Virus record (IMG/VR): IMGVR_UViG_3300050156_000143
Coordinates: 1-64,000 of that record
From: a virus
Lineage: Duplodnaviria; Caudoviricetes
DNA length: 64,000 nt
Reading direction: 5' to 3' (one strand)
Positions 27,010 through 38,550 of the stretch are shown here, one piece after another (positions within the stretch are counted from its first letter, which is position 1; each line of letters starts with the position of its first letter). The notes under the pieces were generated by a model. The model searched no databases, was not told where the DNA came from, and worked only from the letters and a program-made list of their open reading frames with translations. Position numbers and translations under genes: made by a program.

Positions 27010-28289
27010 ATTACGATTTGCTGCCATTGTGGGCAAAAGACGCATTACTGAAGAACCCATTGTTGATGATGCTAATAACTTCATTATTTGGGGTTCTGAT
27101 TGTATATTTCAAACAAGTACCATCCGCAATTTGGAATTTTCTGACCAGTTACATATTTGTCAGTATCAAATTAGACCACCGCACTGAAGCGTATTGGTTG
27201 TTACAGCAGCGGTTATCTGAACTTAAAGTAACTGAACATTTCAAAAACATATGTATCGAGAACGCATCAACCTCAGTGAATACATGGGCATTCTCCACTG
27301 CATACAACAATCACCGAAAAAACACTGACACAACAATACACATTTCTGCCGGGTATGGGAAAACTTTATTCAAATATGAACAAACATGGTACATTTATCA
27401 TAAACAACAAACTGTACTACAAGGAAATGCGCCGTTGGTTGAAGTGACCCTCACTGCATTGACCACTTCCAGACACAATGCCTTGAAAATTGTGCGCGAT
27501 CTTGAGGATATGATTCCGAAAACCAGTTTGGCCAACGTGTACTTATATCAAGAAAAGGGTTGGAGACAAGCTGGGGAACAAATTACCCGCACATTTGATT
27601 CCATTGTGCAGCCCCCAGGAGTGATCGACTACTTGATGGCGGATGCAGATAAATTCATCGTATCAAAATCCCAGTTTGAAAAAACAGGCACTCCATATCG
27701 TCGATCTTACATATTTCACGGGAAATGGGGGACGGGGAAAACGTCTGCTGCAATGGCGTTTGCTAAGTACCTCAACCAATCACTATACATCGTAAACCTT
27801 GGGAATTTTGGCAGTCAAGAACAACTGTTGTCGGCTCTGTGGATGACCAATCCGGGGTCAGTCATATTGGTGGAAGACGTTGATTGCGTCGGAGTCGGGG
27901 TTGGTCAGCGTGGTTCGCTAAAAGATGCACCAAACCCGGTGGATAATACACCTACAACCAAAGATGTTTCAGAATTTGGGGCCATCACCTTATCTGAAAT
28001 CTTGAACTCGTTTGACGGTGTGTTGACTCCACAAAATCGCATGTTCGTTTTCACCACCAATGTGCTGGACAGTTTAGACCCAGCGTTTTTGCGCCCTGGG
28101 CGAATTGATGAAAAAATTGAATTCAAACATTTGGAGTCCCCGGAACAAACCAGACTGGTGAAGTTGTTTTTTGATAACACGGATGGATTCAACGGGGTCA
28201 ATAAAGCGATCCCCCCATGCGAGCTAGCAAACATGTGCAGAAAATCGGCTTCACCACCCGAAGTTCAGTCGCACTGTGAGCAATACTGA
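27006..28289 (+). CDS. BCS1-like AAA+ ATPase with N-terminal TM helix
   Basis: PYRRSYIFHGKWGTGKT, ILVEDVD, TLSEILNSFDGV, FTTN, LDPAFLRPGRID. Confidence 0.85.
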   Translation: MNYDLLPLWAKDALLKNPLLMMLITSLFGVLIVYFKQVPSAIWNFLTSYIFVSIKLDHRTEAYWLLQQRLSELKVTEHFKNICIENASTSVNTWAFSTAYNNHRKNTDTTIHISAGYGKTLFKYEQTWYIYHKQQTVLQGNAPLVEVTLTALTTSRHNALKIVRDLEDMIPKTSLANVYLYQEKGWRQAGEQITRTFDSIVQPPGVIDYLMADADKFIVSKSQFEKTGTPYRRSYIFHGKWGTGKTSAAMAFAKYLNQSLYIVNLGNFGSQEQLLSALWMTNPGSVILVEDVDCVGVGVGQRGSLKDAPNPVDNTPTTKDVSEFGAITLSEILNSFDGVLTPQNRMFVFTTNVLDSLDPAFLRPGRIDEKIEFKHLESPEQTRLVKLFFDNTDGFNGVNKAIPPCELANMCRKSASPPEVQSHCEQY

Positions 28290-28314
28290 AAAAAGCGGCC
28301 TAGGCCGCTTTTTT
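28289..28314. terminator. Bidirectional terminator, identical to 1342-1367
   Basis: Same 26-mer between convergent genes. Confidence 0.9.
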
Positions 28315-28334
28315 CTTATGTTGGGTTCATTATA

Positions 28335-29786
28335 TTAAATCACAGTTAAATCAACGTCTGGCTCATCTGAGCGCAAAATGGCTTTCACCATGTAGGGCGG
28401 GTAATTGAAATCTGGGGAATACGACTTGGCCTTTTGTTTCGCGGCGTAATCGGTGTTAGCAGCGATGATTACACGCTTCCCATTCGGGGCAACCACTTCA
28501 AATTTGCCATTGTTTGTTGAATTGTCTCGGGATTGATTGATATCTTTTAGTAGACGCTTGAGTAATGGTGGGCGGTATGAGCTAGTCGGGACGAGCTGCG
28601 ATAAAATTTCAGCTATGGCCGCTAAATTATCATCAGGTAGCCTGAACAGTTTGAATAATTTTTTGGCATACAGTTCTTTAGCAAAATCTGGCCTTGATGC
28701 AATAGACATTGCATAAGCATATCGAAGCATGGTGTTAATAATCTGATCAACGCCTTTACTCAAATAATCTCCACCAGCGCTTCTAAATTCTATGTAATCT
28801 GGCTTCATATTGATCGAGGTATATCTTGACAAATTGCTTTCTATAATATGGCGAGCACCGTTTTGTAAACTTTCCCGCAGTTTGTCCACAATCCTCGCAA
28901 AGGATGAAACGTCACTGACGTGTCGGTTAGTAACGAATTTCAACGCCGAGGCACACATGGTATTTTGTAACCGACCAAATTGTTCCAAAACATATTCATC
29001 ACCAAGGAACACTGCTAATTTGGAATAATCAACTTTTCCACCAACGTGTGGCAAACTGACACCAACGTGAAATCCAGTCGATTTGTTAGTGTAAGCATTA
29101 TTATCATGCAGCCAATCGAAAAACTTCGGAACAAATTTAATCGCATCATTGATTGGCATCGGTGGAGACACGATTTCCACTGCGCAATCCCCAGGGTTCT
29201 CAGGCGTTATTGACGAATCCGGTTCAAACACAAATGTGTTATCGGGTCTGGAGCCACCGTGATTCGATGACACAATAGATGGAATGGCCATTTGAAATGC
29301 AAATTGTCCTGCCATGTGTTTGACATAGTGTGGATCAAATTTGCCAGTGAAATGCGTAGCATCCGCATCCCCACTATCGTGCGGCCAAAACTCATTTAAA
29401 TCGTAACATTCTGCTATCTCAGACATACTACGGAATTCGCCCCTCAACCAAGACGATTCACATTCACTTCGTTCCGCGAGATCGTCGTCGGTATCATCAA
29501 GCGAATCTAACCACGCATAATAATCATGATTCATTCTTTCCGACAATTCACGACGATCTCCACCAGAAAAGTCGTACGACTGTTGGAAAAATGATATTAC
29601 TTCTCGTATGGTATGCGGCACCCCAGGATCGTCCATTTCCATTTGCTCAAATTCGTAGTCTTCACTGCCCGCTGAAAACACCACTTCCGCCTCAAACCCC
29701 ATGCGTATGCCGGTGGCCAAAGGTGAATTTAGAAATTTGTTAAAAACGCCGGGGGACATTTTTAGTTCAGTTAAAGTTTGCTTCAT
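28335..29786 (-). CDS. Putative amidoligase (COOH-NH2 ligase type 2)
   Basis: GFEAE, EPDSSI, EIVSPP, STGFHVGV, RYTSIN, IEFRSAGG. Confidence 0.75.
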   Translation of the reverse strand: MKQTLTELKMSPGVFNKFLNSPLATGIRMGFEAEVVFSAGSEDYEFEQMEMDDPGVPHTIREVISFFQQSYDFSGGDRRELSERMNHDYYAWLDSLDDTDDDLAERSECESSWLRGEFRSMSEIAECYDLNEFWPHDSGDADATHFTGKFDPHYVKHMAGQFAFQMAIPSIVSSNHGGSRPDNTFVFEPDSSITPENPGDCAVEIVSPPMPINDAIKFVPKFFDWLHDNNAYTNKSTGFHVGVSLPHVGGKVDYSKLAVFLGDEYVLEQFGRLQNTMCASALKFVTNRHVSDVSSFARIVDKLRESLQNGARHIIESNLSRYTSINMKPDYIEFRSAGGDYLSKGVDQIINTMLRYAYAMSIASRPDFAKELYAKKLFKLFRLPDDNLAAIAEILSQLVPTSSYRPPLLKRLLKDINQSRDNSTNNGKFEVVAPNGKRVIIAANTDYAAKQKAKSYSPDFNYPPYMVKAILRSDEPDVDLTVI

Positions 29787-30176
29787 ACTGATATTTAGTT
29801 TGTCCCCATGATTGACTCGGGCATCACCAAGGTGGGCGGTCAGTCTGTTGCTATGTTTGCATCACCAAAGGACACAACCGTGATTCTCTACCATGCCACC
29901 ACTCCAAAGAAGCTGGATCGGTATCGATCTAGTGGCCGAATTATCACACCCGTGCGAGGGTTTACTTCGCATCTTGCTGCACAAGAATGGGCTAGAAAAG
30001 TGGGTAGAACCGTTCCCCTCAAAATTGAGGGGAACGTCGTTCACAAGCTGCCAGATCATCACAACCAATATGGAACTGCCTGGTGGATCGAACACGATGT
30101 AGAAACGTGGGAAACAGTGTCTGAGCACATTGTTGACAAAAATGGTCAGCTATGTTCTAATCAGCTCCATGATTGA

Positions 30177-30913
30177 GAGAACCCTGATGTTTAGCGTTCT
30201 TATCCAGTCTATCAGTTGTCTTAGAACGTCGTTAGCAATAACTCTGCCCTTACGTTGAAATGGTGGCCTACAACCCGTCCTCTACGTGTATGTGACGGTA
30301 GAAGCAGGATTCAGACACCCTGCACTTCAAGTGACTACCCTTCTGCTGGAAGGATGCCTTAAACCCACTCACCCATCGTGAGCTTGGTGTTTCACTTGTC
30401 GCAACGGTTTGATCCAAGTAATTGGACTTAAAGAGCACAGTATGACAACAATTGGTACTGTGCGTCTGCTGCGTCATGGTAATAGTGATAGAGGGCGCAG
30501 GCTGGTCATACGGGTGCCGTGGTGGTGAGTATGATATTCAAACAGCGATGAGATCAAGAATTCTAGTAATAGTTGGTGAGACATAGACAATCCTCCACCG
30601 TAAATTCTCCGCCACGGTCGCCAAACGGAAACCTCAAGAATGTGAGCCACCTTGTGTGGCTATGTTCATTTCCTTTGATGTACATTTTGTATATCTATTC
30701 ACCTATGTTTCCTAAGAATATGTGTGTCACATGGTAGTCAGTCCTGTAGTTCATCAGTGACTCTCATTGTGTGAGTCTATGTTCTAAGATTTATGCTAAA
30801 CTTTTCAGGTACTTCCAATGAAGACGATAATTCATGAGTGGCGTAAGCCATGAAGTGAATTTGAAGTCTTCTGTCGCGCTAGCGACTAATCATCATCCAT
30901 CACAAGGACTGTC
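30177..30913 (+). ncRNA. Candidate large structured ncRNA (alternative: structured replication origin)
   Basis: No credible ORF over ~740 bp; 5' and 3' ends pair (30183-30227 with 30781-30809); many internal helices; two GTAA (GNRA) tetraloops on +. Confidence 0.5.
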
Positions 30914-31267
30914 ATGTCACTTAAACAAAAATTCACGCAAGAAATCATGAGTCATATGGCTAACCCCATGTCTTATGAACATTGTTTCCGTCATTTCTGG
31001 ATCACTTCTCCCTCAAGTGATTGTTTAAGGTTGTCCGCCATCGGCCTTGCAGCAATGCGTGAATACGGGAATCCAGGCACATTGAAAGCTATCAATGGCA
31101 ATTCGTTTTCTACATCGCAATTGCTTATGGGGCTACGGAATCATGCCAAATCACCTTACTTCATTGATGGGGGATCGGTTCTGGTATTTGACACCGACTT
31201 AATCGCACTTATTGCCTTGTATGGATCAGTGCAAGAATGGTTGGAATCAGTTGGGGAGGCCGAGTAA
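30914..31267 (+). CDS. Conserved hypothetical protein
   Basis: 117-aa ORF with AAGGA RBS; LRLS..G and SPYFID blocks. Confidence 0.6.
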   Translation: MSLKQKFTQEIMSHMANPMSYEHCFRHFWITSPSSDCLRLSAIGLAAMREYGNPGTLKAINGNSFSTSQLLMGLRNHAKSPYFIDGGSVLVFDTDLIALIALYGSVQEWLESVGEAE

Positions 31268-31269
31268 AC

Positions 31270-34200
31270 CTTATGGATTACACTACCCTTGGAGATGGTG
31301 ATCCCTATGAATGGGGTGCCTCGGTACGGGCAGTTATGGATCGTTGGTTTGATTTCATTGCCATCGCAGAACCACCAGCCGAGTGCCTACTGGATTGGAC
31401 TACAAGGTGCAATAACGATTTGGAACAATATTCCGCTAAAATGAACTTACACTATCTTGATGGTGTTGTCATTGGTTGGAAAAACATCGAATTTGATACC
31501 GAAGACGGGTATATTGCATTCATGATGAGGTTCGGGTGATGTACAAAATCGTCGAGTGGGATGACGGGAATTGTGTTGATAACTTTTTATCCCAAGTGAA
31601 TTGGGAAAATGATTCGGTTGAAACTATGTCGATGTCGCTCCTTCATGTGTATTTCGATTATATTTTGCTGAAATATGACGCAGAAGTAGTTTATGCCGAT
31701 GGTGGTCAATGGGTTTGCCACTGGACTGATGCTGTTGTGAGTGCCCCACTTGGTTACCGCTCCAGTGCAATCCGGTTTAACACAATGGCTGGATATGTTG
31801 CTTTCACCATGACTTACAATTAATACCATGCCGTTTATACAAAACGTGTCGTTACGTGCGATTTTGATTGGCGCACACTTGCAAAACCCTGGCAGTGTTC
31901 TCATTCAAATTGCCGATATTGGAGCCAACTTTCCTGTGCCGGTGTTTGACACGGGTGGGGAAAAGTGTATCAATTCCGGTTTATGGATCATGATTATGAA
32001 CGTGGCGGATTCACTCTAGAACAGGCTGAACAAATCGCCAGCGTTTTGACAACTGCTTTAAACGATGAGGTGGATGTTGTGGTACATTGTGTTGCAGGAC
32101 TGTGTGGGTCAGGTGCAGTTGCTGAAGTTGGTGTCATGATGGGGTTCATTGATGCCCATGCTGTGCGCCAGCCTAATATCAGGGTGAAATCTATGTTGAT
32201 TAATACATTGGGGTGGGGATACGATGATTGTTGAGAAAATGCCGGATCATGATTACACACTGAGTGTGGTGGGGCGATATTTCAGCTCAGTATGTTCCAC
32301 ACTCCCCATTTGTTCTGGTGTGTCCGATCTCGAATTAGTTGAATATTTCAGGCAAGATTTGGAAAACTATGATGCCTACACTGTGTTAAACGGTAGGCGC
32401 TATCTTGGTGACGTATATTTCAACTCCGATGAAGATCATATTGCATTTTTACTCAGGTGGTCGTGATGGTGGATAAATTCTTTGTGTTCAGGCATAAGTG
32501 GATTCGTTCAGAACTGAACGTTGTGCTGCCTGATGATGCCACTGTGATCTACATGGATTCGGAAAGGTTTCTCGGCGAATTGGCCGACTTGACCTGTGCA
32601 TATCGCCGTGTATATGGATATGGTGATTACGAATTGGACGCCAATGGATACGAAAAGTATTCAAAATGGCAGAACAGTGTTAGTGAACATTTTAAAAATT
32701 ATGATTTAACTGTGCATGCACATAATGACGATACTTATTACTGTTTCATTACATTTGCAATACACGAAGGATTCTTGGCATGGACAATGACATATTGACG
32801 CCACCTGTTTACAAGGCGTTGAAACATGTTTCAACGCCTTGTCTGACACGATACATACGCATTTCATCCCATGGGATGAAATGCGCAAAGTGCTTCCCTT
32901 GTATGATTGTGAAAGCATAGACATCGATGATATTCAAATTTTCGGTGATCTCCACTTTCACACCGAATCAGGTTATGTGGCCTTTTGTGTGAGGTTTTTC
33001 TAATATGTATGTAAAATATCCAAGAACGTATCATCACCCGTTGTCTCCTGGTGTGCAAAGTGATGACAAAGTAATCTCCACTATGGAGCACATGTTGGGG
33101 AAACGATGTGTGATCACTGAGAAGATGGATGGAGAAAACTCTAGCCTATACCGGGATCATTACCATGCCAGGAGCATCGATTCCAAACATCATGAATCCA
33201 GAAATTGGCTAAAACGGTTTCACGCAAGTATTGCACATGATATTCCGGTCAATATTCGTATTTGTGGTGAAAATCTGTATGCCAAGCATTCCATACATTA
33301 CCATGAACTGCAAAGTTATTTTTATGGGTTTGGTGTGTGGGATGGAGATTTGTGTTTATCTTGGGATGACAGTTTAGAATGGTTCGATTTACTTGGCATC
33401 CAACCTGTCCCGGTGTTGTTTGAAGGAATACTGACCAGCACCCGTGTTGCCAAAATTGCTTCCAAGATGGATTTCACCGTGAGTGAAGGGTTTGTCATCA
33501 GAGTTGCTGACTCATTTTCTATGAGCGAATTTCCCACTCATGTCTGCAAATATGTGAGAAAAGGTCACGTACAAACTGGCGAACACTGGATGCACCAATC
33601 GATTGTCGCCAATGATATACGGCCGTTGGGGAACGGTTAATGACAATTTTACTCAGCAGGTATGAACAGGGAATTGACCCTACAATCGTTTCTGTGTATG
33701 TTGACATACCAGTGTTTCCAATATTGTCCGACGATGAATTGGACGTGTTGCTTGATGCGTGTGAAGCTGATACTGATGAAGTTCTGACCAGAATGCTGGC
33801 ACATGCGAACGCCGTGTTACAACAGTATTGTGGACATATTCTTCCTACGCGGTATGGGGAGTTTTGGGAGTATATCCAGTTTGACAACCAAGATGGGTTT
33901 ACTGCGTTTATTTTAACTCACGGGTAAACTTACGGGTAAGTAATATGATATTTCCATACATTGTATACACTGAACAGGCACGAGCTGATGATGCCGATAT
34001 TAACAACTGGATGAAATTTGTTAGAAATTCCACGCCAGACTTACTGCCATTTGGTGCGTATCATCGATGGGATTCTGGTTTCCAGAAGGTGGTGAATGCT
34101 TTGTCTGAAGATTTGCTTCAATATGACGCTACTATGGTTTTAACGGTGCCTGGAACGGAGGCGGCCTCAAATTACCTCATTGAATCCATCACATTCAACA

Positions 34201-38150: not shown

Positions 38151-38316
38151 GAGCTATCACGTTATTGTTCAAACTGACGAAACAACAGGGGATTTATTGA
38201 TTCCCCTGCCAGAGGGACTACTCAGTGAAGTGGGTTGGAAATATGAAGACCAAATATCGTTTGGCATTGACGCAAGTGGCAGATTGGTGTTGACGAAAAT
38301 TGACTCCACAAATTGA
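38137..38316 (+). CDS. Small AbrB/MazE-like protein (59 aa, absent from ORF track)
   Basis: GDLLIPLPEGLLSEVGWKYEDQISF pattern. Confidence 0.65.
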   Translation: MLHSKSYHVIVQTDETTGDLLIPLPEGLLSEVGWKYEDQISFGIDASGRLVLTKIDSTN

Positions 38317-38341
38317 AAAAAGCGGCCTAGGCCGCTTTTTT
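38316..38341. terminator. Bidirectional terminator at the major strand switch
   Basis: Third identical copy of the 26-mer. Confidence 0.9.
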
Positions 38342-38550
38342 CATGAACGTCTGATGATCCTACCCTTGGTTAAATCATAGACGGACAACTCCACATCCAC
38401 CAAATCCCCTAGCAAGATTTTGATATTGTGCTTCCTCAGTTTGCCACCAAGGTGCGCCAAAATGGTGGAATTATTGTGTAATTTTATCCTGAATTTTGCA
38501 TCACGCATCACCTCGATTACTTCACCAGACAATACGACGTTTTCTTTCAC
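38341..38550 (-). CDS. infA: Translation initiation factor IF-1
   Basis: GEVIEVMRDAKFRIKL...LAHLGGKLRKHNIKILLGDLVDVELSVYDLTKGRIIRR. Confidence 0.92.
   Translation of the reverse strand: MKENVVLSGEVIEVMRDAKFRIKLHNNSTILAHLGGKLRKHNIKILLGDLVDVELSVYDLTKGRIIRRS

Follow-up and report, generated by a model that had tools for sequence, protein, structure and literature searches.

What is encoded by 737 bp of phage DNA in which no credible gene for a protein can be recognized? The question is raised by positions 30177–30913 of the IMG/VR virus record IMGVR_UViG_3300050156_000143, a T4-like phage record of 277,516 bp with direct terminal repeats; the window referred to throughout is the whole stretch of DNA that was analysed, the first 64 kb (64,000 nt) of this record. 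An earlier note on this DNA had described 30177–30913 as by far the longest stretch without a credible open reading frame (ORF) and had proposed that it gives rise to a large, structured non-coding RNA (ncRNA) from the + strand. The stretch indeed carries stops in all six frames, its longest ORFs being of 69 aa (− strand) and 58 aa, and it is bounded by two complete ORFs of 122 and 117 aa, neither of which has a Pfam or PHROG match. It is also the longest gap of the window (737 bp, the next being 396 bp), but not of the genome, in which four gaps are of similar size (872, 737, 693 and 692 bp) and the 872-bp gap is longer. By every test applied here, the locus specifies a real, conserved ncRNA with multiple pseudoknots that represents a new family. 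We place the gene for this large, highly structured + strand RNA at 30227–30730, perhaps extending to about 30895, and put the probability that it is such a gene, of a previously undescribed family, at roughly 80 %.

A conserved family of folded RNAs

The folding energy of the + strand of 30177–30913 is −226.7 kcal/mol, which lies below that of shuffled controls (z = −3.8, against z = −2.6 for the − strand, with 20 shuffles only in each case), a comparison that the earlier note had suggested. Homology is far stronger evidence for a structured RNA than folding energy. Exact-motif scans of IMG/VR and JGI metagenomes with two conserved strings, one of them the motif in the loop of helix P9, yielded 97 loci on viral or metagenome contigs, each with exactly one full-length match to the family profile, and these were collapsed at 96 % identity to 52 distinct sequences. 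The scan with the motif from the loop of P12 matched 75 viral contigs. The conserved core, at about 30227–30730, measures about 500 nt in this copy and 385–450 nt in most members, and the family profile places the copy in the window at 30233–30715 (nhmmer). An independent profile, built from the 50 foreign sequences alone with this genome left out, matches the same copy at 30246–30726 (E = 8.4e-47) and a paralog elsewhere in the genome (E = 1.7e-35), and has no other match in the genome. It is this match, together with the covariation in 52 distinct homologs described below, that bears out the proposal of a large structured + strand ncRNA.

The paralog lies at about 251.0–251.5 kb (about 251005–251495; L002:1447–1937 in our numbering of loci), some 220 kb away, inside a 693-bp ORF-free gap at 250997–251689, and is 68 % identical to the copy in the window over 337 nt. 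The two copies differ from each other by compensatory changes, namely UCCAA-GUAA-UUGGA as against UCCGA-GCAA-UCGGA in the paralog, UGCUGCG..CGCAGGC as against UGCCGCG..CGCGGGC, and CCUUC..GAAGG as against CCCUU..AAGGG. The paralog retains an intact P1, the 5' closing helix, and is preceded by a bidirectional terminator 40 nt upstream. It is the syntenic and better-preserved copy and that in the window the diverged one. Homologs come from contigs of up to 364 kb, and five large records that were checked hold one copy apiece, so the presence of two copies in this phage is unusual.

The covariation that the earlier note had proposed to look for in homologs proved strong. With 20 sequences as input, RNAalifold returned 48 pairs, and compensatory changes were present in 37 of these. 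For all 52 sequences a column-pair scan plus helix extension was used and 67 non-conflicting pairs were scored, in which 95.8 % of the cells are canonical and double changes occur in 55 pairs (545 cells). In 500 column shuffles, no shuffle equalled the 67-pair set on any of four measures, and when the 3' partner was shifted by 1–3 columns as a control, pairing fell to 35–43 %. Across the family there are 172 G.U cells compared with 33 A.C cells, which assigns the RNA to the + strand, as had been proposed. The fold consists of four helix-closed domains, the first formed by P1–P3 with pseudoknot PK1, the second by P4–P6, the third by P7–P9 and the fourth by P10–P12, closed by the long-range pseudoknot PK2. 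The elements of the copy in the window are as follows.

30177–30226, +: 5' flank, with strands of the closing helices of the earlier note; not conserved in the family
30227–30730, +: conserved core (profile matches, alignments)
P1, family 5' closing helix: not formed in this copy
30240–43/30252–55, +: P2 hairpin (covariation); weaker in this copy than in the consensus
30246–49/30262–66, +: PK1, pseudoknot of the P2 loop with a downstream strand (covariation)
30275–79/30294–98, +: P3 hairpin, CCGUC/GACGG (covariation)
30328–30398, +: domain II, comprising P4 around CUACCC, P5, the conserved GGAUGCCUUAAA and P6
30328–34/30392–98, +: P4 (covariation)
30335–40, +: CUACCC, conserved and single-stranded
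30339–53, +: P5 hairpin; covaries between the two genome copies
30361–92, +: P6, the inner part of which is 30368–82
P7: weak, G.U-rich helix; coordinates not assigned in this copy
30413–26, +: P8 hairpin with a GNRA loop, GUAA here and GCAA in the paralog (covariation)
30435–63, +: inserted 8-bp hairpin, lineage-specific by alignment gaps, the paralog having extra sequence there and other members none
30469–75/30494–500, +: P9, closing the 18-nt near-invariant loop AUGGUAAUAGUGAUAGAG at 30476–93 (covariation)
30506–11/30529–34, +: P10 hairpin, the loop of which bears the 5' strand of PK2 (covariation)
30517–25/30609–17, +: PK2, long-range pseudoknot CCGUGGUGG/CCGCCACGG (covariation)
30541–30560, +: conserved single-stranded junction, consensus AACAGCGAAUACGG (alignment)
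30563–72, +: P11 mini-hairpin, CUA-GUAA-UAG
30574–600, +: P12 hairpin with the 12-nt loop CAUAGACAAUCC at 30582–93; the stem covaries
30632–30642, +: repeat X, CCUCAAGAAUG; changes together with X' across the family
30645–61, +: terminator-like hairpin with a U-rich tail, only in this genome's two copies; a U-run in other members
about 30677–30703, +: 3' hairpin like P13, with AUCUAUUCACC in place of the family 3' strand AUCUACUCGCC (alignment, covariation scan)
30708–30719, +: repeat X', CCUAAGAAUAUG, direct repeat of X
30731–30913, +: copy-specific 3' extension, with hairpins at 30759–77, 30820–71 (long) and 30874–88 and a third X'-like module, CUAUGUUCUAAG, at 30777–88

PK2 offers the clearest example. 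Its pairing is maintained by three unrelated pairs of sequences, CGAUGAAU/AUUCAUCG in the consensus, CCACAAUG/CAUUGUGG in the paralog and the 9 bp of this copy, with double changes in all eight pairs; double changes likewise affect 7/7 pairs of P4 and 7/7 of P10, and the four pairs of P8, a hairpin found in about half of the family, all covary. Family helices P3, P4, P9, P10, P12 and PK2 can all form in the window's copy. P1 (consensus UUGRY/RYCAA) is unformed there, the strands UAGC and GACAC being unpairable, and the paralog retains UCGG/CCGA. The conserved nucleotides are mostly unpaired and comprise the 18-nt loop of P9, the loop CAUAGNCAAUCC of P12, CUACCC and AACAGCGAA; at 30476–93, 30582–93 and 30335–40 the copy in the window agrees with the consensus. 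Conservation in the family peaks at P12, the loop of which is identical in 52/52 sequences outside three variable positions. One of these, the base N, follows the adjacent P4 pair, G-C occurring with A in 34 of 41 cases and A-U with U in seven of eight. This covariation, along with the invariant CUA that follows P4 and the invariant UAG of the P12 loop, suggests a tertiary contact, although phylogeny may confound it.

Much of the local structure drawn in the earlier note recurs in the family. Its stems at 30275–98, 30339–53, 30368–82, 30413–26, 30469–500 and 30506–34 are the conserved, covarying P3, P5, inner P6, P8, P9 and P10, and the GTAA-capped hairpin at 30413–26 is a real GNRA hairpin. 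Those at 30301–28, 30435–63, 30645–61, 30759–77 and 30820–71 are likewise to be seen in the sequence, yet only this copy or this genome's pair of copies has them. The overall architecture fared less well. Three nested closing helices (30183–227 with 30781–809) can be traced in the sequence and in the minimum free energy fold but are situated outside the core, and nothing corresponding to them is seen in the paralog or homologs; flank-to-flank duplex energy does not exceed that of shuffles in this copy (z = −1.0), and 49 of the 50 members tested, this copy among them, gave no significant signal. It might be that these helices stand in for the lost P1 in this copy. The inner long-range helix TGACTACC/GGTAGTCA pairs the family-conserved, single-stranded CUACCC with copy-specific downstream sequence. 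The proposed boundaries and the 'closed' topology are without support, the real unit being the core at about 30227–30730. Overlooked were the long-range pairings with the best support, P4, PK1, PK2 and hairpin P12.

Novelty was assessed against Rfam 15, which gave no match either in the whole window (gathering score) or in 29700–31400 (E ≤ 10), no match at the RNA position in 16 related loci, and nothing relevant over the paralog, four other non-coding gaps of the genome and 20 related or bacterial loci. The lack of an Rfam 15 match excludes membership of GOLLD, ROOL, OLE, HEARO, group I and II introns, RNase P and tmRNA. ARAGORN found no tRNA or tmRNA in the window, the seven tRNAs of the phage being located at 171–173 kb; together with the Rfam result this upholds the earlier view that the RNA is not a tRNA, tmRNA or RNase P RNA. 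By blastn, with this copy and a consensus-like member as queries, no match was found in 50,697 GenBank phages. Two cultured relatives recognized by neck-protein similarity, Pseudomonas phage PA5oct and Agrobacterium phage Atu_ph07, have no syntenic gap and no credible motif match. A prokaryote collection of one genome for each of 185,579 species contained no family member, with 0 matches to motif 1 and four to motif 2 that cover the 24-nt motif only and do not exceed the chance estimate (~17). Nor does the family profile match any of the further large gaps in the genome (132.1, 183.1, 200.9 and 77.7 kb). As far as these searches show, the family would be confined to uncultured large T4-like phages; the habitats of its members are freshwater and litter.

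The 3' tail and its direct repeats

Downstream of PK2 the tail of the RNA runs in the order UCGCC, an optional hairpin, X (consensus CCUCAAGAAU), a U-run, P13 (GGCGAGUAGA..UCUACUCGCC) and, past a short linker, X' (CCUAAGAAU). As direct repeats (consensus CCU(C)AAGAAU) on either side of the U-run and P13, X and X' change together, so that a given member has the same string in both; examples are AAGCAG, GCAU, AAAAGAUAG, AGUAAUG and UGCUGAUU. In several members X is in the loop of a covarying hairpin and is followed by U's. This co-variation is beyond what ordinary RNA pairing explains. No consistent site complementary to X/X' was found within the RNA, and no complement was found elsewhere in this phage genome. 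Both UCGCC strands are able to pair with the same GGCGA, so that a two-state tail is possible. The idea that X/X' marks a template jump was set aside, no reverse transcriptase domain having been found in the phage.

In the copy in the window, a module consisting of a hairpin plus CUAUGUU(C)UAAG recurs at 30759–88. The 3' extension at 30731–30913 may be part of the RNA or the leader of the next gene; in many homologs, too, the interval from the core to the late promoter of the following gene holds hairpins that vary. The element is bracketed by a perfect 11-bp direct repeat, CTATGTTCTAA, at 30150–30160 and 30777–30787, and three of the genome's four + strand occurrences of CTATGTTC fall within 30150–30784, each directly after a hairpin. 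The repeat and this clustering may be a trace of the insertion or expansion of this paralog. A further optional hairpin, with a covarying stem and the conserved loop GAGCNNAGCGA, is located 40–170 nt 3' of the core; the pattern occurs in 12 of the 52 sequences (among them loci L025:1775–1815, L006, L009, L058, L079, L013, L068, L077 and L097, and L002 at about 1975–2015), with a GAGC loop in 11 of the 12 and a background of 0.015 per kb. It has no Rfam match, and the window's copy has the degenerate GUCGCGCUAGCGAC only.

Gene context, expression and possible function

The RNA and its neighbours share one strand at every locus, and at least three gene contexts can be told apart. In one, which includes the paralog at 251 kb, a MazG-like gene is upstream and genes for a neck or head-tail-adaptor protein and for a dNMP kinase are downstream, an order shared with PA5oct. 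In another, a few genes separate the RNA from the large terminase gene, which is downstream. The copy in the window represents a third context, among small ORFs without assigned function. Most loci have a GATAAATA box between the RNA and the next gene, resembling the T4 late promoter, TATAAATA. At L011:10085–10111 and in most loci this box is followed by a Shine–Dalgarno-like sequence, ahead of the neck or head-tail-adaptor gene that comes directly after the RNA, an arrangement that fits T4-type late transcription in these uncultured phages.

A GC-rich hairpin or full terminator often adjoins the first helix, P1, leaving no space for a promoter, and from this we infer that the RNA is probably transcribed by read-through from an upstream non-late unit, past the GC hairpin adjoining the 5' helix. 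The transcript would end ahead of the late promoter of the next gene, and the RNA would then be processed or protected. Of its 3' tail, the two UCGCC-linker-CCU(C)AAGAAU modules around the U-run and P13 probably serve in 3'-end formation or as a binding platform, and the tail could adopt two alternative pairings to the shared GGCGA strand. As to function, by analogy with other large ornate RNAs of bacteria and phages we lean, if only slightly, towards a trans-acting RNA, a compact tertiary scaffold to which a protein of the phage or host, or some other macromolecule, would bind, and which would not regulate the adjacent gene in cis. In one metatranscriptomic run a single 228-nt contig is 100 % identical to 30521–30747, with nothing else in 28000–33000; low in depth and strand-blind, it is a weak hint of expression. 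Three further runs of uncertain type have contigs only within 30100–30603 and are unusable as expression evidence, and a search of RNA libraries for a consensus-type member returned only small word shares and so no expression evidence.

Several points weigh against this interpretation. The loss of P1 from this copy means that it may be a partly degenerate paralog. No convincing sigma-70-type promoter was identified upstream, and nothing in the RNA libraries directly demonstrates that a discrete transcript exists, where it ends or how abundant it is. No protein accompanies the RNA from one gene context to the next as a possible partner. The scaffold model leaves the co-varying direct repeats X and X' without explanation, and the present tests do not discriminate between scaffold, ribozyme and regulator.

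Were the RNA a new large ribozyme that processes itself or acts on RNA of the phage or its host, with the P9 and P12 loops and AACAGCGAA as an active site held by the pseudoknots, this would account for the size of the RNA, its two pseudoknots and its invariant or near-invariant unpaired nucleotides, all typical of catalytic cores, and the CUA after P4 could form a base triple or 3-bp contact with the UAG of the P12 loop. Two short strings, UUCACAGAACUAC and GAGACAUAGUC, moreover appear to resemble the R and S elements of group I introns. We nevertheless consider a ribozyme unlikely: no Rfam 15 ribozyme model matches, even at E ≤ 10, no cleavage or ligation site was identified, and OLE, GOLLD and ROOL, for which we know of no demonstrated catalysis, share these hallmarks. 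A little less likely still is a cis element, that is, a giant attenuator or stabiliser in a 3' untranslated region governing read-through from an early or middle gene upstream into the late region downstream, with the U-run and the competing UCGCC/GGCGA pairings as its expression platform. Terminator-like hairpins directly upstream, the U-run that follows X (with X in the loop of a covarying hairpin, then U's, in several members) and the competition of two UCGCC strands for one GGCGA are all consistent with such an element. The flanking genes, however, vary over at least three contexts (MazG-like/neck, near the large terminase gene, small ORFs), the downstream gene comes with a late-promoter-like box of its own, placed after the RNA, no U-run follows P13, and a conserved, tertiary-looking core of ~350 nt far exceeds the needs of known attenuators.

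The R- and S-like strings also bear on a very improbable reading, in which the locus is an intron of group I type, degenerate or atypical, or another self-splicing mobile element. Group I introns are known from T4-like phages, and the 11-bp repeat at 30150 and 30777 brackets the element. But the Rfam group I model has no match at E ≤ 10, and there is no arrangement of the P3–P7 type: UUCACAGAACUAC is a strand of the 7-bp P4, with its partner ~60 nt downstream, and GAGACAUAGUC is a hairpin loop. Further, no host gene is split, the flanking ORFs being complete and stops present in all frames, and terminators or hairpins precede the RNA in the paralog and homologs. Membership of the group I introns was rejected because of this placement of the two strings and the lack of an interrupted gene. 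The alternative offered in the earlier note, a replication origin or other DNA-level site, drew on the AT-rich stretch at 30661–30720 and several hairpins, and T4 origins prime from a transcript. It is the most improbable reading of all, since compensatory changes, including strand-specific G.U pairs, point to selection on a folded + strand RNA, the cumulative GC skew peaks at 38–40 kb, where gene orientation flips, and not at 30.5 kb, no iteron-like repeat array was found, and the genome holds two copies in differing contexts.

It is tempting to speculate beyond the preferred reading, the trans-acting scaffold. The family could be a new class of catalytic or self-assembling RNA of virulent jumbo phages, the P9 and P12 loops forming its active or assembly site and X/X' around P13 marking a site of repeated reaction or template jumping. 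This is a long shot; were it true, the repeats would reflect a processing, ligation or copying step unseen in known ribozymes, and in any event co-varying direct repeats may point to a new mechanism. To our knowledge only a handful of classes of large (>400 nt) structured ncRNA occur in bacteria and phages, and each of the earlier ones led to biology or principles of structure that were new, ribozymes and RNA-only complexes for instance. With 52 distinct sequences, rich covariation, two proven pseudoknots and invariant or near-invariant loops, the family is a good subject for electron cryomicroscopy (cryo-EM), for ribozyme or binding assays and for an Rfam model. It also accounts for two of the few large non-coding gaps of a jumbo phage, that studied here and that of the paralog at about 251 kb.

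Other elements of the phage may be non-coding as well. Four further ORF-free gaps, at 183134–184005 (L101:335–1206), 132139–132830 (L100:340–1031), 200893–201350 (L103) and 77747–78062 (L102), share only short strings with one another, have no Rfam match at E ≤ 0.1 and may be such elements. The 396-bp gap, where genes flip from + to −, contains at 38315–38342 of the window the 28-bp palindrome GAAAAAAGCGGCCTAGGCCGCTTTTTTC; it looks like a bidirectional terminator, and near-copies border the 183.1 kb and 251.0 kb gaps. In three related phage contigs a freshwater-2 RNA motif (RF02980) is situated about 9–10 kb from the new RNA (L052:9274–9351, L080:11873–11949 and L095:2006–2082).

Comparison with known RNA classes

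A catalogue of 8,495 unnamed candidate structured RNAs has been compiled from IMG/VR (Fremin et al., 2023; PMC10690425). It resembles the present work in drawing on IMG/VR contigs and in using comparative structure prediction as evidence; a keyword search of the article's text found no description of a family like this one, and the catalogue may include the new family unnamed, whole or in part. Among characterized RNAs, bacterial RNase P RNA and tmRNA are of similar size, with two or more pseudoknots and conserved single-stranded core elements, but the new RNA differs from them in being a linear series of closed domains and in matching neither by Rfam or ARAGORN. The group I introns of T4-like phages (td, nrdB and nrdD) are similarly phage-borne, 250–500 nt long and pseudoknotted, with GNRA loops. 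In contrast to these, the new RNA does not match RF00028 at E ≤ 10, has no interrupted host gene or splice-site features, and lacks the P3–P7 pseudoknot core with a P4–P6 domain, the order of its helices as derived from covariation being different.

By analogy, the closest counterparts in kind would be the large ornate phage-associated RNAs GOLLD (RF01998) and ROOL (RF03087), to which the earlier note had already pointed; the analogy stands, but neither model matches the new RNA in sequence or structure. The new RNA is also smaller, with a core of about 420 nt, and is found in T4-like virulent phages, whereas GOLLD and ROOL have Lactobacillales hosts or occur in rumen prophages; it is not here beside tRNA genes. 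What the new RNA has in common with both is a length of more than 400 nt, many helices, pseudoknots and conserved unpaired nucleotides. All are phage-borne and encoded by stand-alone genes, with some members from lake metagenomes and no known biochemical function. GOLLD, ROOL and OLE form RNA-only homo-oligomeric complexes, as seen by cryo-EM (PMC12286853).

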